Source: an uncultured Syntrophobacterales bacterium (GTDB taxonomy: Bacteria; Desulfobacterota; BSN033; WVXP01; G020346125). From it: a DNA stretch of 64,000 nucleotides. The notes beneath the pieces are model-generated. The model made no database searches. It was not told the DNA's origin and worked only from the letters and a program-made list of their open reading frames with translations. A program made the position numbers and the translations under genes. The first letter of the stretch is position 1. Each line of letters starts with the position of its first letter. The stretch is taken from the NCBI GenBank assembly GCA_964346945.1, contig CAYFXL010000001.1, positions 626 to 64,625 on the forward strand, in the 5' to 3' direction. Shown here in pieces: positions 12,268 through 58,378 of the stretch.

Positions 12268-12282
12268 CATGCGGAGGAATCA

Positions 12283-13767
12283 ATGGCTGAGAATGTTGTA
12301 CCGGATATGGCTATAAAAACCCCAGAGGAAGCTGTTTCGCTGGATGCGAACGAGGTAAGGAATTCCCGACTGGATAACGACTTGATCATCAAACTCCACA
12401 TCTTGATGAAGAGCTCCCAGATTTATGATCAGAAGAACGTTGCCTTAAATCAGGTAGTACAGGGATCACTGGCATTGATTAAACACTTCTTGAAATCCGA
12501 GGGTTCCCTGGGCTTGAAGGTGATACGTAATGGACTCTTCATCAACGGCAAGAGGTTGAAGGTTGGGGTCGATAGTTATATCGGGTTTAAGTTCGTCTTG
12601 GAGCAGTTTCAGAAGAAGAGGGTGGGAGAGATTCGGATATCTGGGATTCTGGACGAAAAGATGCTCAAGGAGTTCGTCTATAATCTGATCAATTTGGGTG
12701 ATGGAGATGAAGGGAACGCAAGGAAGTTGCAAGACCATTTGAATCGGCTCGGCATCAAACCCATTGAAGTTGAGCCACTGGAAATCTTCGAGGAGGATGA
12801 ACTCTTTGGCGGCCACACAAATCCCAAAGAGGCTGGAAAGAAGCTCTTCTTCGAGACCATCGGGGTTATCAAAGGGGTGGTCACCGGGTTTAAGAAGAAC
12901 CAATTTATCAACGCCAGAAAATTGAAGAGAATGGTCCAGGGAGCGGTCAACCTGATGGTAAAGGATGAATCGATACTCCTTGGCCTGACCACGATAAAGA
13001 ATTATGACGAATATACCTTCAACCACTGTGTAAACGTAGCCATCTACTCTCTGGCCATTGGGCGGAGGCTCGGTTTTTCTAAGAAGACTCTGACCGAATT
13101 GGGGATGACGGGCCTTTTACACGATATGGGAAAGGCGAAGATACCCAAGGAGATTCTCAATAAGCCCGATAAGTTAGACGATGACGAATGGAGGCTCATG
13201 AGAGAGCATCCCATGACAGGTGTTGAGATGATGTTGAAGATAAAACAATTGGGGGAAATGAGCCCAAAGATGGCCATCGGCGTGTTCGAACACCACCTGA
13301 ATTGGGATCTAACGGGCTACCCAAAACTCATAAGGAAAAAAGATCTCACCATATTCGGAAGGATTATTAAGATCGCCGATTGTTACGATGCTATGACTAC
13401 ACCCAGGGCCTACCGAAAGACAACCTATCGGCCCGAACAGGCATTGGCCATTATGGTGCAGGACAGGAATGGGTTTGATCCCGTGCTGCTCAAGGTGTTC
13501 ATCGCCATCATCGGGATCTATCCCATAGGATCCCTGGTCCTGCTCGATACCAAGGAGATGGGCGTAGTTTATGAGACGAACCCAGATCCCCAATATATCA
13601 ATCGACCGAAAGTGATCCTCATTTCTCAATCAGAGGGGAAGAGAAGAATTGGCCCAGCCGTAGATCTGGCGGAAATGGATGGCGAAAAGAAAACCTATAA
13701 GAGAAGAATCGTTAAGGCACTGGATCCTAAGAAATACCACGTCAATATCGTGGAGCATTTCTTGTAA
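12283..13767 (+). CDS. HD-GYP domain protein (putative c-di-GMP phosphodiesterase)
   Basis: LLHDMGKAKIP, REHPMTG, FEHHLNWDLTGYPK and IADCYDAMTTPRAYRK form a full HD-GYP signature. SD GGAGGA lies upstream of the ATG. Confidence 0.85.
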   Translation: MAENVVPDMAIKTPEEAVSLDANEVRNSRLDNDLIIKLHILMKSSQIYDQKNVALNQVVQGSLALIKHFLKSEGSLGLKVIRNGLFINGKRLKVGVDSYIGFKFVLEQFQKKRVGEIRISGILDEKMLKEFVYNLINLGDGDEGNARKLQDHLNRLGIKPIEVEPLEIFEEDELFGGHTNPKEAGKKLFFETIGVIKGVVTGFKKNQFINARKLKRMVQGAVNLMVKDESILLGLTTIKNYDEYTFNHCVNVAIYSLAIGRRLGFSKKTLTELGMTGLLHDMGKAKIPKEILNKPDKLDDDEWRLMREHPMTGVEMMLKIKQLGEMSPKMAIGVFEHHLNWDLTGYPKLIRKKDLTIFGRIIKIADCYDAMTTPRAYRKTTYRPEQALAIMVQDRNGFDPVLLKVFIAIIGIYPIGSLVLLDTKEMGVVYETNPDPQYINRPKVILISQSEGKRRIGPAVDLAEMDGEKKTYKRRIVKALDPKKYHVNIVEHFL

Positions 13768-47011: not shown

Positions 47012-48094
47012 ATGATCGTCGAATGCGAAGTTTGTCAGACCAAGTATAACTTAGAGAATTCAAAAATCACGGCACAAGGGGTGAAGGTCCGATGCGTGAA
47101 ATGCCAGAATATCTTTTCCGTCACACCTCCTTCAGCAACTCCGCCTACTCCGCCTTCGCCACCCACCCCATCTCCTCCAGAGCCGGCGGGAGATGATTTC
47201 CTCCAGGACTTCGAATCCTTCGAAAAATTTCATAAGGACTTGATGGATACGCCCGCGCCGGAAGCAGGGCCATTCGTGGATGAGGAGAGCATATTTGAGA
47301 GGGAGATGGTTGACAAGATTTCCGGGGATACGGGGGAGGTGCCTTCTCCGGAGGTCTCGAGCATGGCGGAGTTCTCCACCGAGGAATGGCCAAGCCCTTC
47401 CCTCGATCAGCAGGAAAAACCGGAACCCATCGAGGAGGAGATGGATGTCCCCACCTTCGACATGAGGGGATTGGAGGATCAAAGCTATTTCGAGAGCCCA
47501 AGGGTGACCCCCAAGAAGAGAAAAACATCTAAGGCCTTCGTGTTGATCGGCATTCTTCTTGTCATAGCCTTAGGAGGATTCTACCTCTGGACTGAAAAAG
47601 GGATGAAACTCAGCCTCCCTGGAAATATCCCGTCTTTCCTCAAGGCCATTCCGGAGAGGCTCACATCCGTACCGGAGAAGCTCAAATCCGTATGGGAGGA
47701 CATCAGGGGAAAAGAAAGGGGAAGCTTAAGCTTTTCCGATTTGGAGGGTTATAAGGATACCATCGGTGAAGTCCCCGTCTTTGTGATTACGGGCAAAATA
47801 TTAAATGAGACAAACAAAACGAAGAAGTACGTGAGGATCAAGGCCACTTTATTAAACGATAAGAATAAGGTATTGGATGAGAAACAGACTCTGTGCGGCA
47901 GCTATTTTACCAACGAAGATCTAAAGAAACTTCCCCCCCGTTTCATAAGGGGAGAGTTCAAGATCCGACCGCCGGCGCCAAACCAGATGCGCGTCGCCCC
48001 CCAAATGACCGTTCCCTTTATCGTTATCTTCCCCAATATGTCCCCTGACGCTCAGGAGTTTGAAGTAGAAATCATTGAACACCCAAATGCTTAG
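47012..48094 (+). CDS. MJ0042-type zinc-ribbon protein with Pro-rich linker, one TM helix and DUF3426-like C-domain
   Basis: MIVECEVCQTKYNLE...VRCVKCQNIFSV; PPSATPPTPPSPPTPSPPEP; TM FVLIGILLVIALGGFYLW. Confidence 0.75.
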   Translation: MIVECEVCQTKYNLENSKITAQGVKVRCVKCQNIFSVTPPSATPPTPPSPPTPSPPEPAGDDFLQDFESFEKFHKDLMDTPAPEAGPFVDEESIFEREMVDKISGDTGEVPSPEVSSMAEFSTEEWPSPSLDQQEKPEPIEEEMDVPTFDMRGLEDQSYFESPRVTPKKRKTSKAFVLIGILLVIALGGFYLWTEKGMKLSLPGNIPSFLKAIPERLTSVPEKLKSVWEDIRGKERGSLSFSDLEGYKDTIGEVPVFVITGKILNETNKTKKYVRIKATLLNDKNKVLDEKQTLCGSYFTNEDLKKLPPRFIRGEFKIRPPAPNQMRVAPQMTVPFIVIFPNMSPDAQEFEVEIIEHPNA

Positions 48095-48445: not shown

Positions 48446-49492
48446 ATGGAAGAAGATTTTATTCGGTTGACGCATTATGCCAAGGCGGCGGGTTGAGCTG
48501 CAAAGATCGGTCCAGGGGACCTGGATCAAATCCTCCAAGATCTTCCCTTGTCAAGTCACCCGGATCTCCTGGTGGGAATCGAACATCTGGACGATGCCGG
48601 GGTATATCGATTGACCGATGATATTGCCCTCGTCCAGACCATTGACTTCTTCACACCCATCGTGGACGACCCCTTCAGCTTCGGGCAGATTGCCGCGGCC
48701 AATGCACTGAGCGATGTCTATGCCATGGGGGGTAAACCCCTCACGGCTATGAACGTAGTTGCCTTTCCCATCAAGAAGTTGGGAAGTAGCATCCTCAAGG
48801 AAATCCTGATGGGGGGATACTCGAAGGTCCAGGAGTCCGGCGCACTGATAGTTGGAGGACACAGCATCGACGATGTCGATATCAAGTACGGCCTTTCCGT
48901 TACTGGGGTTGTTCACCCCAACAGAATATTGACCAATGCCCGTGCCCGACCGGGAGATCGACTCATCTTGACTAAACCCCTGGGAACGGGGATCATTACC
49001 ACTGCCGTCAAGGGGGGAATAGCCTCCCAGGAGGCGATTACGAAAATTACCGAAAGTATGACAACGTTGAATCGAGCAGCTTCTGAGGTGATGTTGGAAG
49101 TCGGGGTTAACGCCTGTACGGACATCACTGGTTTCGGCCTCCTGGGTCATGCTTTGGAGATGGCCATGGCCAGCGAGGTTGCCATCGTTATCCAATCGCA
49201 ATCCGTTCCCATTTTCCCCGAAACAGAGGAGTATGCTTCCAGGGGGATGGTACCAGGAGGAACCGGGAGGAACCGAGATTTCTCATCGTGCAGGCTTGAG
49301 ATCTCGGGGCCCGTCCCTAATGGAAGGATGGACATCCTCTCTGACCCTCAAACTTCGGGGGGACTTCTCATCTCAGTTGAAGGGAAAAGGGTCAAAATCT
49401 TCCTGGAACAACTCCATCGCAGAGGCGTGCAGTGGTCGACCGTAATTGGCGAGGTTGTCGAAGACCCAAAGGGAAAGATTGTACTGGAGTGA
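48446..49492 (+). CDS. selD: Selenide, water dikinase (selenophosphate synthetase), selenocysteine-containing form
   Basis: The ATG at 48446 reads MEEDFIRLTHYAKAAG-U-AAKIGPGDL... straight into track ORF 48548-49492. The in-frame TGA at 48494-48496 is codon 17, with Lys at codon 20, matching the positions of catalytic Cys17 and Lys20 in E. coli SelD. The track ORF lacks this N-terminus. Confidence 0.88.
48505..48527 (+). promoter_or_regulatory. SECIS-like hairpin downstream of the selD UGA
   Basis: GATCGGTCC-AGG-GGACC(TG)GATC: 9 bp with a 2-nt bulge, starting 9 nt after the UGA. Confidence 0.55.
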
Positions 49493-49582: not shown

Positions 49583-50698
49583 TCATAACTTTGGCCCTAT
49601 GTGCCCATAATCGGTTTGACAGATTACGGTTTTCAGCCCTCCTCGCGTCAGTATCCTATGGACCTCTACCATTTCATCATAGCTCGGCTTCACCAGATCG
49701 AGCCTCTTAAATTCTGGCCTGTAGTCTAAGACGCAGACCTGGACCTCAGGGTCTATCATATGCAACCTCTCTCCTATCAATCCTATTTCCTGAGGTGATA
49801 TCAGTTCCTTGTTGTACGGAATCCCTACCCCAATGAAAACCCCGCCCTTATACCTCTCAACCATGTATGTTGCTACATCCCATGCTGTATTCAAATACCT
49901 CTCAGCAAGTCCCCTATCTTCTATCCCTGTTATCCGCATAAATGTCTCTGGATAATATCCTTTGAGGTCTATGCCTATATCCGTCATCCCAGCCTCAACG
50001 AGGTCTTCGACATAATCCCTCGTCAGTATGGACGCGTTTGTATCAACATGAACCCGTGCATTTGGATCGGAGTTGAATCTTTTGAGCTCCCTCACGTATT
50101 CTACCAGCCATTTCCTGTTTAAGGTACATTCACCTCCGGAAATTGCCATCCTGTCAACCCCGAGTCCTTCCCTAGTGGTTGTCATAATCTCCGCTACCTC
50201 GCGAGGAGACAAAGCCTTACCCTCTCCCTTATACGTCGTCTCCCAGTTCTGACATTGAGGGCAAAGAAGGTTGCAGCCAGCGGCAAAACAGGCGGCCTCT
50301 ATATGCGTGTGACCGCCCTTCAGCCACCAGGGTGTTCCCACTCCGCCAACGGTATGCCCACTGAAACCATGGACTATTCTTCTGGGTATGTAATCCTCCG
50401 AAAGCCCTGTATCGACTGCAAGCCCATCCTCTACCCGCGTAATACACGCAGGCCTGATTTCTCCGTTTATCACAACAGCGCAACTCCAGCAGCCGCCGCG
50501 CGAGCACGGTGCGAATAGTGAGCCTTCCTGCGGATATGTTGATATTCTGTAACCGTTTATTTCCAGAGCCTTTTTGACCGTTATCCCACAACGGACTTTT
50601 ACCTTTGTACCATCCAACTCTATTGATACCTCTTTGTCCATTCTCTTCCCCGACCCCCCATCGGTCATATCCCCCTCAGCAAAGCTGGTGGCTCTCAT
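49583..50698 (-). CDS. Radical SAM protein with N-terminal 2Fe-2S-ferredoxin-like Cys-rich domain (PFL-activase-related)
   Basis: AACFAAGCNLLCPQCQNWE (CxxxCxxC). N-terminal CSRGGCWSCAVVINGEIRPAC. Glycine-rich SAM motif MAISGGECTL. The start may be internal (50668 or 50641). Confidence 0.75.
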   Translation of the reverse strand: MRATSFAEGDMTDGGSGKRMDKEVSIELDGTKVKVRCGITVKKALEINGYRISTYPQEGSLFAPCSRGGCWSCAVVINGEIRPACITRVEDGLAVDTGLSEDYIPRRIVHGFSGHTVGGVGTPWWLKGGHTHIEAACFAAGCNLLCPQCQNWETTYKGEGKALSPREVAEIMTTTREGLGVDRMAISGGECTLNRKWLVEYVRELKRFNSDPNARVHVDTNASILTRDYVEDLVEAGMTDIGIDLKGYYPETFMRITGIEDRGLAERYLNTAWDVATYMVERYKGGVFIGVGIPYNKELISPQEIGLIGERLHMIDPEVQVCVLDYRPEFKRLDLVKPSYDEMVEVHRILTRGGLKTVICQTDYGHIGPKL

Positions 50699-51026: not shown

Positions 51027-51054
51027 TTGATTTCGGGACTTTTTATGGTAATAA
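51027..51054 (+). promoter_or_regulatory. sigma70-type promoter driving the riboswitch leader
   Basis: TTGATT (51027-51032), 16 nt, TAATAA (51049-51054). The predicted start falls at the 5' strand of P1. Confidence 0.45.
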
Positions 51055-51057
51055 ATA

Positions 51058-51177
51058 GGTAACCGAAAGGCCAAACCATCCGTGAGGGTGAGACGGAAAG
51101 CCACGGGTCTAGCGGGGGAGATCCCCGAGCTTCCGAGATTTGACATCATAGATTTCTCTAGATAGCCGGGTTGCCGA
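51058..51177 (+). promoter_or_regulatory. GEMM-I (c-di-GMP-I class)-like riboswitch aptamer
   Basis: P1 is GGTAACC (51058-64) pairing with GGTTGCC (51169-75). GGCCAAACC is followed by hairpin CATCC-GTGA-GGGTG (GNRA loop), then GACGGAAAGCC, a long P3 (51104-51168) and GGGTTGCCGA. These strings parallel GGGCAAACC / GACGCAAAGCC / GGGUUACCGA of the V. cholerae Vc2 aptamer, as I recall it. Confidence 0.6.
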
Positions 51178-51203
51178 AGTGAATGGGTAACTCGGCTTTT
51201 TTT
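51164..51203 (+). terminator. Intrinsic terminator (riboswitch expression platform)
   Basis: AGCCGGGTTGCC pairs with GGTAACTCGGCT (12 bp, 2 G-U), with a 10-nt loop and a T7 tract. The 5' arm contains the P1 3' strand. The 3' arm repeats the GGTAAC of the P1 5' strand. Confidence 0.8.
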
Positions 51204-51227
51204 ATTCAACCAACAGGTCATGTAAAA

Positions 51228-51860
51228 TTGGTCAATCCCATAAAAAGCAATTCTTTCCAACGGCGCTACCTTCTCTCAATCTGGATGATGTACATCTGCT
51301 CCGGCCTCTTACTTGCCGCCTCACACTGGAAAGGTCTCATCGAGGTTCCTCGAATGGAACCTAGTGAGCAGTTCCGAAGTGAAGAGGAGATCTTTCATGT
51401 TCTCCAGCGCTTCAGGACCGGTCTCCCTCGGGCCGAGCAAAAGAAGCTTGCTTGGCTCATCCTCAAGGAGAGCCGCAAATACGGGCACGACTATCGACTG
51501 ATCCTGGCCATAATCAAAACGGAGAGCTCCTTCAAATATAAAGCCACATCACCAAAAGGCGCAAAAGGGCTCATGCAGATCAAGCCCCATGTAGGTCAGG
51601 CAATCGCTAAGGATATCGACATCGGGTGGGATGGAGATGAAACCCTCTTCAACCCCCATCTCAACGTAAAGATTGGCCTCTACTACCTATCTAGGCTCCT
51701 GCTCCGCTTCGGCGATCTCAAGGTGGCCTTGACGGCCTACAATTTTGGCCCCACTTTTGTTCGCAAACGATTGAAATCGAATCGAAAACTACCCTCCCTG
51801 TATACCAAAAAGGTGATGGAGGCCTACCAAGAATTCTCCCAACCCTCAAAGGGAACGTAG
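51228..51860 (+). CDS. Lytic transglycosylase (SLT domain), secreted or membrane-anchored
   Basis: IIKTESSF (catalytic Glu), GLMQI and LTAYNFGP motifs. The track start at 51183 lies inside the terminator. The TTG at 51228 gives a signal-like N-terminus; the ATG at 51285 is the alternative. Confidence 0.85.
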   Translation: MVNPIKSNSFQRRYLLSIWMMYICSGLLLAASHWKGLIEVPRMEPSEQFRSEEEIFHVLQRFRTGLPRAEQKKLAWLILKESRKYGHDYRLILAIIKTESSFKYKATSPKGAKGLMQIKPHVGQAIAKDIDIGWDGDETLFNPHLNVKIGLYYLSRLLLRFGDLKVALTAYNFGPTFVRKRLKSNRKLPSLYTKKVMEAYQEFSQPSKGT

Positions 51861-51962: not shown

Positions 51963-52868
51963 ATGATCTACTCGCCTCGATATATCAAATTGCATGAAAA
52001 TGGCGAGTTAACCAAAAGGATTCACGCCCTCGACGAAATTCTCGCCCAATGTAGACTTTGCCCACGGCGTTGCGGAGTCAACCGAATCCAAGGGGAGTTG
52101 GGCTATTGCAAGGCGGGAAGTGACTTAATGGTCTCAAGCGTATTTCCCCATTTCGGGGAGGAGGCCCCTCTGGTGGGATATCATGGCTCGGGAACCATCT
52201 TTCTCACTCACTGCAATCTTCGCTGCGTATTCTGCCAGAATGATGATATTAGCCACCGGGGCAGAGGGGAAAAAACATCCCCTTCCCAAATGGCGAACTA
52301 TATGATGAGGCTACAGGAACTGAAATGTCACAACATCAATTTCGTCACCCCTACCCACTACGTTCCACAAATCGTGGCCTCCCTTTCCGAGGCCATCGAT
52401 CTGGGTTTGCACCTTCCCTTGGTTTACAATTGCTCGGGATACGAATCCCTCGAGGTGATCAAGCTTCTGGACGGGATTATGGACATTTATATGCCCGATG
52501 CGAAGTACGCGGGGGAAGAGCCGGCGAAACGATTCTCCAATGCCCCGGATTACCCCCCCGTTCTGAAGGAAGTCCTCAGGGAGATGCACCGCCAGGTGGG
52601 GGATCTCCACATGAACAAAAACGGAATCGCGGAAAGGGGCCTCCTGATCAGGCACCTGGTTATGCCCGAGGATTTGGCCGGAACCGAGGACCTCATGAAG
52701 TTCATCGCGGAGGAAATTTCCCGAGACTCCTACGTCAACATCATGCAACAATATCGCCCCCAATACAAGAGTTACGATTACCCCGAACTCCGCCGGCCTA
52801 TCACCTACGGGGAGTATTTGCATGCCGTTAAGGCCGCAAAGAACTTCGGCCTTCACAGGGGTTTTTGA
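51963..52868 (+). CDS. Radical SAM protein, PflX-like (homologue of pyruvate formate-lyase activating enzymes)
   Basis: CRLCPRRC near the N-terminus; FLTHCNLRCVFCQN radical SAM cluster; about 300 aa. Confidence 0.8.
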   Translation: MIYSPRYIKLHENGELTKRIHALDEILAQCRLCPRRCGVNRIQGELGYCKAGSDLMVSSVFPHFGEEAPLVGYHGSGTIFLTHCNLRCVFCQNDDISHRGRGEKTSPSQMANYMMRLQELKCHNINFVTPTHYVPQIVASLSEAIDLGLHLPLVYNCSGYESLEVIKLLDGIMDIYMPDAKYAGEEPAKRFSNAPDYPPVLKEVLREMHRQVGDLHMNKNGIAERGLLIRHLVMPEDLAGTEDLMKFIAEEISRDSYVNIMQQYRPQYKSYDYPELRRPITYGEYLHAVKAAKNFGLHRGF

Positions 52869-53747
52869 TTGAATCCCGAGGAACTTTGGCGAGAGGTGAA
52901 AAGGCTGGGGAGGGAACTCGAGGCCCTTCGCCATGAGGTCATGGCCCTCAGGAAAAACCTACCGGCGCAGACCCCGATAAAAAATGTCCTCAAGGAGAGA
53001 GGGCTTAAGGTCTTCCGGCAGAATCCCGCCGAAAAACTTCTCTTCCCCCAGGAAATCTCTCCCGGGATGAAAACCCGGTTCTACGAATTGTTGAAACGTT
53101 ACTCGTTCAGGCTCTTCCTGAGAGACATGACAAAGAAAAGCCAGGGCTTTCGAATCGGGGATCTGGTGCGATACGTCTCACCCGAAGTCGCTGACCAATA
53201 CATTCAGTTTCTCTTGTTAGTGGACAGCATCGAGGAGATAGGGCGGGGCGAGTTCCGGATTCGAAATACCGCCATCACCAGTTTCGGACCCACCCTCGAA
53301 TGGTTTGTAGCGGAGATCTTTAAGAGAGAGTTCGCCTCTCCAGCCATATACGGGGTTCATTTTAAGAACACCAAGTCGGGGGGAGACTTTGACGTCATCG
53401 CTCGATGGGGAAGAAGGCTGGTCTACGTAGAGGTAAAATCTTCACCGCCTAAGGGGATCGAGATCAATGAAGTCAGTGCCTTCTTTTCTCGCATTGATGA
53501 TCTGATACCAGATGTGGCAATGTTCTTCAACGATACTCAATTGAGGATGAAGGACAAGGTTGTAGTCCTCTTCCAGGAGGAGCTTGCGAACCGTTACGGG
53601 CTTGAAGCTGATCAGACCCATCCCGTGATGAGACTTATGGACGAATTATTTCACATTCATGACCGTATCTTTATCGTCAACAGCAGGAAGGATGTGGTCC
53701 TCAACCTCGGCACATGTCTGAATCATTTCCTTCGAGAGAGAATATAA
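52869..53747 (+). CDS. Hypothetical protein: coiled coil, winged-helix-like region and PD-(D/E)xK nuclease-like C-domain
   Basis: GGDFDVIARWGRRLVYVEVKSS fits D...(D/E)xK. The TTG start immediately follows the PflX-like stop codon. No family recognised. Confidence 0.55.
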   Translation: MNPEELWREVKRLGRELEALRHEVMALRKNLPAQTPIKNVLKERGLKVFRQNPAEKLLFPQEISPGMKTRFYELLKRYSFRLFLRDMTKKSQGFRIGDLVRYVSPEVADQYIQFLLLVDSIEEIGRGEFRIRNTAITSFGPTLEWFVAEIFKREFASPAIYGVHFKNTKSGGDFDVIARWGRRLVYVEVKSSPPKGIEINEVSAFFSRIDDLIPDVAMFFNDTQLRMKDKVVVLFQEELANRYGLEADQTHPVMRLMDELFHIHDRIFIVNSRKDVVLNLGTCLNHFLRERI

Positions 53748-57209: not shown

Positions 57210-57617
57210 TCAGTCCGCCAAAAATCGGTGAGCCTTCATGAGCTTATCCCGTATCGGCTGATCGGCTTCCGGCATGGAAAGGCCTCTGAGTTCTTCCATT
57301 CCCACCCACCGATACTCTTGACATGCCAAGGCTTTCGGAGTTCCTTCCTCCAATTCGCACCAGTAACCAAGGAGCAGAACGGCATACCTCTCATATCGAT
57401 GGTAAACAACCTCCAAAATTTCTCCCACCTTGACCCCAATATCCAGCTCCTCCGAAAGTTCCCTTTTCAAACATGCCTTGGGGTCCTCATCCGATTCCAT
57501 CTTCCCTCCGGGAAACTCCCAGAGAAAGCCTCTATGGGATTGGAGAGGGCGTTTAGCTACCAACACCCTGCCTTCTTGGATAACGATTCCGGCTGTAACG
57601 ATTTTGAGCTTATTCAT
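57210..57617 (-). CDS. mutT: NUDIX hydrolase, MutT-like (8-oxo-dGTP diphosphatase family)
   Basis: Nudix box GGKMESDEDPKACLKRELSEELDI. The start overlaps the GGDEF stop (ATGA). Confidence 0.85.
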   Translation of the reverse strand: MNKLKIVTAGIVIQEGRVLVAKRPLQSHRGFLWEFPGGKMESDEDPKACLKRELSEELDIGVKVGEILEVVYHRYERYAVLLLGYWCELEEGTPKALACQEYRWVGMEELRGLSMPEADQPIRDKLMKAHRFLAD

Positions 57618-58363
57618 ACGTGCACATTCGCACTCTTTGCAAAGAACCTTCCCTCCATGGCGATTTGATTTCGACCATTCCTCTTCGCGTGGTAGAGGGC
57701 CTCATCCGCTGCTCTGATCAAGTCCTCCATGGTCTCCATTCCACCCAAGAAGCAGGAGCCCCCCATGCTGACGGTGACCTTCCCCATGGGCTGTAACTCC
57801 TCATTGGGGAACGGAGCCTCCTCGATGGCTCTTCGAATCCTTTCAGCAACCTCCTCCATCTGTTTCAGGTCCGCATGGAGCAGGATTATTGCGAACTCCT
57901 CACCTCCATAACGACCGACGATATCCGTCTCCCGAACAGCTCCATTGATCAGTCTCGCGACCTTCTTGAGGGCATCATCCCCGGCCAAATGGCCGTTGTT
58001 GTCGTTGTAGATCTTGAAGTGATCGATATCGAGCATGATCAATGAAATGGAAAGCCCGTACCGCTTCGCCCTCTCGAATTCATAGTGGAGGCGGCTCATG
58101 AGATAGCGATGATTATAGATCGCGGTCAAGCCATCGGTTATGGAAACCTCCTCGAGTTTTTCCATAGCAGCCCTCAACTCACGGGCCTTTCCCTTATACA
58201 GCTCCTTCAGAGCAACGAGCTCCCGATTATAATTCTCCAATTCCCGATTCTTCTCCTCACAGCGGCGTCTCCACTCACCAATTTCTCTCTCCTTCGTGAG
58301 GGATTCCTCTTCCAATCTCCGAATCCTAGCTTCAAGGCTCTCGTGATCAGCTTTTTGGGTCAT
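57614..58363 (-). CDS. Diguanylate cyclase (GGDEF domain) with N-terminal coiled coil only
   Basis: DGLTAIYNHRY..DIDHFKIYND..GRYGGEEFAIIL. The GGEEF active site is intact. Confidence 0.9.
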   Translation of the reverse strand: MTQKADHESLEARIRRLEEESLTKEREIGEWRRRCEEKNRELENYNRELVALKELYKGKARELRAAMEKLEEVSITDGLTAIYNHRYLMSRLHYEFERAKRYGLSISLIMLDIDHFKIYNDNNGHLAGDDALKKVARLINGAVRETDIVGRYGGEEFAIILLHADLKQMEEVAERIRRAIEEAPFPNEELQPMGKVTVSMGGSCFLGGMETMEDLIRAADEALYHAKRNGRNQIAMEGRFFAKSANVHV

Positions 58364-58378
58364 CTCCCCCCCGATGCA

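Follow-up and report, generated by a model that had tools for sequence, protein, structure and literature searches.

The window analysed here is a stretch of 64,000 nucleotides (nt) from an uncultured Syntrophobacterales bacterium (GenBank assembly GCA_964346945.1, contig CAYFXL010000001.1, positions 626 to 64,625 of the forward strand), and all coordinates refer to it unless a locus is named. It carries the gene of a lytic transglycosylase with an SLT domain, in whose leader an earlier note, written from the sequence alone, had described a GEMM-I-like riboswitch, that is, one of the class that senses cyclic di-GMP (c-di-GMP), acting through a mutually exclusive intrinsic terminator. The leader contains a promoter-like element, the aptamer and a terminator that overlaps the 3' part of the aptamer; the SLT gene is followed by a radical-SAM gene and by a gene for a protein of 292 amino acids (aa) (Table 1). 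The assignment of the leader to an SLT-domain gene agrees with the Pfam match of the protein, and its NCBIfam matches remain at the level of the SLT domain.

We scanned the whole window with the Rfam models at their gathering thresholds, the E-values being computed for 64 kb and 4227 families. The scan returned two matches, a tRNA-Met at 42–114 on the minus strand and the c-di-GMP-I family (RF01051) at 51060–51178 on the plus strand. The latter scores 59.8 bits against a gathering threshold of 35 (E = 3.5e-9) and covers model positions 1–87 of 87, i.e., the full length, so that the comparison with RF01051, proposed in the earlier note as a check of its GEMM-I-like aptamer, came out in its favour. 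The aptamer is on the same strand as the SLT gene and ends 50 nt before its likely TTG start (51228), which is a 5' regulatory position. All sequence features listed in the earlier note were found where it had placed them, and taken together they are far beyond chance. By its match to the family model, 51060–51178 is classed as a canonical class-I c-di-GMP riboswitch aptamer, an ordinary example of a well-known regulator.

GEMM RNAs are defined by a first hairpin in which a 2-bp stem, a 3-nt internal loop and a 6-bp stem lead up to a GNRA loop; AAA connects it with a second hairpin (PMC1950547). The first hairpin of the window, P2, shows this layout: a 2-bp stem of C51071–G51096 and C51072–G51095 (pairs 21–46 and 22–45 in the numbering of the Vc2 RNA of Vibrio cholerae), an AAA internal loop (51073–75), a 6-bp stem (51076–81 with 51086–91) with one C-A mismatch, a GUGA loop (51082–85) and a GAC bulge, after which the AAA linker (51097–99) leads to P3. 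The hairpin CATCC-GTGA-GGGTG with a GNRA loop, as read in the earlier note, is present at 51077–90. The second hairpin, P3, is paired at its base (51099–102 with 51169–72) and then, past a bulged A (51103), at 51104–06 with 51166–68; an AG bulge (51164–65) and the pairs of 51107–12 with 51158–63 follow, and above them a three-way junction carries the hairpins P3a (51113–27) and P3b (51135–56). This bears out the long branched helix noticed at 51104–51168. The distal part of P3 has 45 nt instead of the 13 of the model, which accounts for a match of 119 nt to 87 model positions.

The binding pocket is canonical in the cmscan alignment at all three positions, G51070, A51097 and C51174, the equivalents of G20, A47 and C92 in Vc2. 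In the Vc2 structures A47 intercalates between the two bases of the ligand. G20 recognises the G-alpha base and C92 forms a Watson–Crick pair with the G-beta base (PMC6140456). Helix P1 would be minimal, with the pairs C51064–G51176 and G51065–C51175, in the register of C13–G94 and G14–C93 of Vc2. A longer P1 in the canonical register (51062–65 with 51175–80 and an AA bulge) was considered and rejected, being broken without compensation in two orthologous leaders, L099 and L093.

The earlier note had singled out three junction strings, GGCCAAACC, GACGGAAAGCC and GGGTTGCCGA, as differing from Vc2 by one base each. All three are present in the leader; against the Rfam consensus they differ by 1, 1 and 0 bases. 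According to the cmscan alignment, the single differences in GGCCAAACC and GACGGAAAGCC are the two sides of one pair, G21–C46, flipped to C–G in the window; the pair stays Watson–Crick and scores positively in the family model. The note had regarded the ligand as open on account of the C next to CAAACC, and this reservation falls away: together with the G in GACGG this C forms the flipped pair, and the pocket is canonical. Since the flip leaves the binding pocket unchanged, c-di-GMP is expected to be the natural ligand.

The terminator consists of a 12-bp stem with seven G-C pairs (−20.5 kcal/mol for the hairpin alone) followed by a U tract, i.e., a G+C-rich hairpin and U run as in intrinsic terminators in general. 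It is the strong terminator of the earlier note, with the seven T at 51197–51203, and the repeat of GGTAAC in its 3' arm was also found, the second copy lying at 51186–91. The 12-bp stem is part of the minimum-free-energy fold of 51040–51215 and is recovered independently by RNAalifold; a simple consensus terminator scan did not list it, because its loop has 10 nt and the scan admits at most 8. The 5' arm (51164–75) takes in the 3' strand of P3 (51166–72), the pocket bases 51173–74 and the P1 base 51175. Since the terminator reuses the P3 strand, the C92-equivalent and the base next to it, the aptamer and the terminator are mutually exclusive, as had been proposed. In 12 orthologous sequences the terminator is paired in 93.3% of cells, against 24–46% for slid controls, and 6 of its 12 pairs vary one-sidedly.

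Nearest-neighbour energies take neither the ligand nor tertiary contacts into account. They give −45.2 kcal/mol for a full-length leader with the terminator, P2, the 21–46 and 22–45 pairs and the upper P3, −50.1 kcal/mol for the minimum-free-energy fold and −31.7 kcal/mol for the ligand-free aptamer. As terminator folds are favoured in energy, the ligand must tip the balance, and its energy together with co-transcriptional timing would hold the aptamer. In 78 of 322 GEMM instances a terminator shares its 5' side with the 3' strand of the second hairpin, and more ligand is predicted to give more expression (PMC1950547). The ON-switch logic of the earlier note is the expected reading, with precedents in PMC1950547 and PMC9262584, and the leader most likely acts as a transcriptional ON switch of the SLT gene by blocking the terminator. 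We infer both the ligand and this direction; what is shown is that the RNA belongs to the family, has canonical pocket nucleotides, shares bases with the terminator and is conserved in this arrangement in the orthologs.

The putative sigma-70-type promoter upstream of the aptamer was not listed by a consensus promoter scan of the window. Ten of 11 orthologous leaders retain the strings TTTGATTT and TTTATGGTAATAAA, whereas the spacer between them is variable; the exception for TTTATGGTAATAAA is one substitution in L093. From this element the transcript would be expected to start at about 51060–63, at the very edge of the aptamer.

In the proposed model, transcription would begin close to 51060, and P2 and the long P3 would fold during synthesis. 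With c-di-GMP present, G51070, A51097 and C51174 would clamp the junction around the ligand and lock 51164–51176 into the aptamer, so that the terminator would be blocked and the polymerase would read into the gene. Without ligand, 51186–97 would invade 51164–75, and the 12-bp hairpin with U7 would stop transcription near 51203. Overall, we are highly confident that the leader is a canonical GEMM-I ON switch of the SLT lytic transglycosylase gene in an uncultured member of the Thermodesulfobacteriota, two downstream genes probably being under the same control.

The upstream DNA of SLT orthologs was gathered from genome and metagenome collections; a protein-based metagenome scan gave only 6 loci, and exact-protein look-ups took its place. 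Besides the window, 16 loci carry the aptamer, with 43.7–62.8 bits (the match in L081 is identical to that of the window); taken with the window, they make up 11 distinct full-length leaders and one cut at its 5' end. The ten other distinct leaders score 46.9–62.8 bits and the cut one 43.7. The distinct leaders come from uncultured Thermodesulfobacteriota, and each of them precedes the same gene, that of the SLT-domain protein. All 11 retain the aptamer, the terminator and the gene order, and 10 of them also the extended branched P3, P3b being absent from L087/L088. Over 12 sequences the canonical fold is paired in 95% of cells, against 30–56% for slid controls, with 18 further pair types. P2 is paired in 94–100% of cells, with changes from UG to UA and from CG to UG; in P3 the main stem reaches 99.4%, P3a 90% and P3b 88.6%, and every change is one-sided.

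Several observations weigh against our interpretation. P1 in the canonical register has only two pairs, and as neither varies in any of the 11 orthologs, covariation neither supports nor refutes it. At the base of P2 the window copy has the C-A mismatch 51076/51091, where ten orthologs have C-G. The ortholog set is about 85% identical, its changes are all one-sided and mostly involve G-U, with none double-sided, and shuffle controls were not exceeded; covariation in this set therefore adds little, and it is the family model that supports the fold. Some close orthologs (L089–L092, L096/97) have lost the riboswitch or have only a decayed copy in front of the gene, so that it is dispensable in the clade. 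Finally, if the transcript starts at or before 51058, nearest-neighbour energies favour a fold with a 7-bp P1 (−37.9 kcal/mol) over the canonical aptamer (−31.7 kcal/mol).

This last fold is the one drawn in the earlier note, a three-way junction with GGTAACC (51058–64) paired to GGTTGCC (51169–75), in which the ligand would stabilise the 7-bp helix as the functional P1 and sole competitor of the terminator. The complementarity is real, the helix appears in the minimum-free-energy fold of an aptamer-only transcript (−38.9 kcal/mol; −37.9 for the model of the note), one of its positions has UG, CG and UA variants with pairing kept, and GGTAAC recurs in the 3' arm of the terminator. It is not, however, the P1 of the family fold: it takes 51169–72 from the base of P3 and pairs C51174, which the ligand requires, so that it is not the ligand-bound helix. 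In the orthologs the P3 base that it would remove has 100% of its cells paired and shows three one-sided changes. The 7-bp helix itself is paired in 85.7% of cells in 11 orthologs; its outer pair (51058) is broken in 8 of 11, and inner breaks occur at 51063 in L099 and L086 (2 of 11) and at 51061 in L086 (1 of 11). Moreover, the conserved promoter-like element would set the transcription start inside its 5' strand. We consider it quite unlikely that the 7-bp helix is part of the functional bound fold; it is at most a ligand-free alternative. What the terminator competes with, we conclude, is no long P1 but the base of P3, the pocket and the base that follows.

Another alternative retains the aptamer class and replaces the ligand by 3'3'-cyclic GMP-AMP (3'3'-cGAMP) or another cyclic dinucleotide. 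Geobacter, which belongs to the phylum of the host, has GEMM-Ib switches for cGAMP, one orthologous leader (L100–L102) has the corresponding A20, and in the window the pair beside G20 is flipped and P3 is atypical. Against this, the flip preserves Watson–Crick pairing and is scored positively by the family model, and the GGDEF protein of the window keeps the Asp of GHxxGD. This Asp is Ser in the Hypr GGDEF enzymes that make cGAMP. In the cGAMP-sensing relatives G20 is replaced by A (PMC6140456), whereas the window has G at 51070 together with the C92-equivalent, and wild-type Vc2, with G20, discriminates against cGAMP (PMC6140456). With G51070, A51097 and C51174 canonical, there is no signature of cGAMP (A20) or of the GGC variant (G47), and we rate a ligand other than c-di-GMP as very unlikely.

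An observation on the orthologs bears on the same position. The leader at L100:965–1135 recurs unchanged in L101 and L102, and thus in three separate metagenome samples, and carries A at the G20-equivalent, GAAAGACCAAACC, which is the signature of GEMM-Ib riboswitches that sense 3'3'-cGAMP or are bispecific. The gene that it precedes is again SLT (83% aa identity).

The GGC variant was considered because several orthologs score best with its model, RF03167, and was ruled out, as position 47 is A. Its definition was taken from the printed RF03167 consensus, GACGCGAAG with G47, compared with GACGCAAAG in RF01051; the window and all orthologs have GACGGAAAG with A47. The variant calls for G47 and at least 59 bits; 51097 is A, and the 64-kb window has no RF03167 match at the gathering score (59). 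Orthologs L002, L082, L084/85 and L093 score slightly higher with RF03167 (61.0–62.8 bits) than with RF01051. Their aptamers (L002:2777–2896, L082:638–756, L084:1278–1396, L093:1035–1153) are canonical A47 aptamers just above the RF03167 gathering score, which automatic annotation would mislabel as the GGC variant.

Least probable of all is a decaying relic that no longer binds ligand, so that the gene would lie behind a constitutive attenuator. The C-A mismatch of the window copy, the clearly broken P2 with a kept terminator in the close ortholog L096/97 and the orthologs without the element would speak for it, but the score stands 25 bits above gathering with all pocket nucleotides intact, the ten other distinct leaders and the 5'-cut eleventh also match the family at the scores given above, and an unrelieved 12-bp terminator would silence a conserved gene.

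Upstream of more distant SLT homologs there was no GEMM match in 58 loci (L003–L060), and a regular expression for the core motif, run over all fetched loci (L001–L102), matched only in the close clade. Upstream of the P0026/P0027 orthologs (L089–L092) the aptamer is absent; there (about 1130–1300, SLT at 74% identity) selD and the likely SLT start are separated by a short gap whose sequence bears no relation to the riboswitch leader. The leader at L096:1040–1190 (also L097, L098) is decayed, with GGCCAAAC, CGGAAAGC and the terminator kept, P2 unpaired and no Rfam match at gathering, and may represent a riboswitch that is being lost. A c-di-AMP (ydaO) riboswitch with 93.8 bits at L056:5769–5916 follows a distant SLT homolog of Clostridium sp. 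BSD9I1 at a distance of about 2.4 kb and is probably unrelated to that homolog.

As for the enlarged P3, its clade-specific extension of P3a, P3b and the conserved UUCC linker (51113–51156) might be a functional module and not just variable sequence that is tolerated, e.g., by offering the GUGA loop a substitute docking site or by binding a second factor, and the G20/A20 polymorphism might wire the cell-wall operon to c-di-GMP or to 3'3'-cGAMP according to strain; we put this forward as an unlikely proposal. A pairing of the conserved P3b loop CAUCAU (51144–49) with AUGAUG in the 5' coding region of the SLT gene (51285–90) was tried and rejected. With RNAduplex z-scores between −1.7 and +0.9 it was no better than shuffled sequences. 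In L002, L093, L099, L086 and L094 the best target shifts or vanishes, and the loop is CACCAU in L002/L093 without a compensating change, so we judge it to be due to chance.

Table 1. Features of the SLT leader, and genes of the window.
Feature	Position	Strand	Basis and details
Putative sigma-70-type promoter	51027–51054	+	−35 TTGATT (51027–32), 16-nt spacer with TG (51046–47), −10 TAATAA (51049–54)
c-di-GMP-I (GEMM-I) aptamer	51060–51178	+	RF01051
Minimal P1 (predicted)	51064–51065 (5' strand)	+	CG with CG 51175–76; RF03167 P1 register shifted by one base
G20-equivalent, recognises G-alpha base of ligand	51070	+	RF01051 model position 11 (G); role PMC6140456
P2 hairpin	51071–51096	+	cmscan alignment
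A47-equivalent	51097	+	Aligned to A of GACGCAAAG in RF01051
P3	51099–51172	+	Base and middle: cmscan alignment; branches: minimum-free-energy fold
Intrinsic terminator	51164–51203	+	5' arm AGCCGGGUUGCC (51164–75), 10-nt loop, 3' arm GGUAACUCGGCU (51186–97), U7 (51197–203)
C92-equivalent	51174	+	In RF01051 aligned to the first C of UgCCgaa; terminator partner G51187
SLT-domain lytic transglycosylase, N-terminal membrane anchor	51228–51860	+	PF01464, E = 1.2e-27
Radical-SAM gene	51963–52868	+	Pfam
292-aa protein without family match	52869–53747	+	Pfam
GGDEF cyclase	57617–58378	−	PF00990, E = 5e-48; keeps GHxxGD
HD-GYP-type gene	12268–13764		PF13487 HD_5, E = 1.5e-27, GYP motif; NCBIfam similarity to c-di-GMP phosphodiesterase family

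Where the SLT gene has its likely TTG start, L001 has ATG. The gene might instead start at ATG 51285 or at ATG 51183, of which the second lies inside the terminator; the homologs are called at 191, 210 or 225 aa. Close homologs (72–100% identity) come from metagenome-assembled genomes of uncultured Thermodesulfobacteriota and delta-proteobacteria. Most orthologous loci whose sequence reaches far enough downstream (L087–L095, L099) have SLT, radical SAM and the 292-aa protein in this order, whereas loci with P0005 or P0018 differ downstream. A terminator scan found no terminator-like site on the plus strand between 51860 and 52000, and from the gene arrangement the radical-SAM and 292-aa genes are probably co-transcribed with the SLT gene. 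The GGDEF cyclase and the HD-GYP protein that the earlier note had placed in the same window were both recovered (Table 1).

Upstream of the riboswitch, on the plus strand, lies the gene of a selenophosphate synthetase, SelD (48446–49492), with an in-frame TGA (48494–96) within AKAAG-U-AAKIGPG, at the site where E. coli SelD has the motif GAGCGCK. This TGA is likely a selenocysteine codon, and callers of open reading frames give only the 306–314 aa part of SelD after it. Between selD and the riboswitch, the minus strand encodes a radical-SAM protein with an N-terminal 2Fe-2S domain (49583–50698). In the orthologous loci checked, selD (AIRS domain) is the sole called protein-family gene upstream of the riboswitch–SLT unit and there is no reverse-strand radical-SAM gene, so that this gene looks like a lineage insertion. 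Upstream of selD, a plus-strand gene (47012–48094) encodes a protein in which a proline-rich linker connects a zinc ribbon (PF13717/PF13719) at the N terminus with a DUF3426 domain at the C terminus.

In the proposed model, an SLT lytic transglycosylase, and probably a radical-SAM gene and a gene of unknown function, would come under c-di-GMP control in an uncultured lineage related to sulfate reducers, which would add peptidoglycan remodelling to the envelope functions tied to c-di-GMP. The value of the result lies mainly in annotation: what is known of the working of GEMM-I is unchanged, and the switch is a new example, not a new kind. The ortholog set, with G20 or A20, with or without P3b and with one decayed copy, may serve as a natural series for cyclic-dinucleotide specificity and the tolerance of P3.

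Among known systems, Vc2 (the leader of tfoY in V. cholerae and the structural reference of RF01051) shares with the window the layout of P2, the AAA linker, the bulged base of P3 and the equivalents of G20, A47 and C92. It differs in pair 21–46, which is G–C in Vc2 and C–G in the window, and in its GAAA loop with an 11-nt receptor, instead of which the window has GUGA and a continuous helix (GUCUAG with CUAGAU). The 45-nt three-way-junction insert in P3 and the overlapping intrinsic terminator as expression platform also set the window apart from Vc2. The c-di-GMP-I-GGC family (RF03167) belongs to the same clan, CL00126, and is distinguished by its consensus G47, against A47 here, the window scoring below its gathering threshold of 59.

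GEMM versions with GYRA loops and without the 11-nt receptor have been described (PMC1950547), and the GUGA loop of the window belongs to this known subtype (PMC1950547). GEMM is common in delta-proteobacteria (PMC1950547), and the terminator-overlap type of Weinberg et al. 2007 (Fig. 2B) has the same overlap, a delta-proteobacterial host, a GYRA loop and a bulge near the hairpin base; nothing essential differs. The SLT family is not in the table of recurrent families of that paper, whereas a cell-wall 'lysin domain' is (PMC1950547). The best-characterised example of the terminator-overlap platform is the GEMM-Ib switch of pilM in Geobacter metallireducens, also a transcriptional ON switch with mutually exclusive aptamer and terminator (PMC9262584). 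In both RNAs the terminator captures the C that pairs with the ligand, C75 in pilM and 51174 here (PMC9262584); the pilM RNA has A at the position-20 equivalent and senses 3'3'-cGAMP, whereas the RNA of the window has G.

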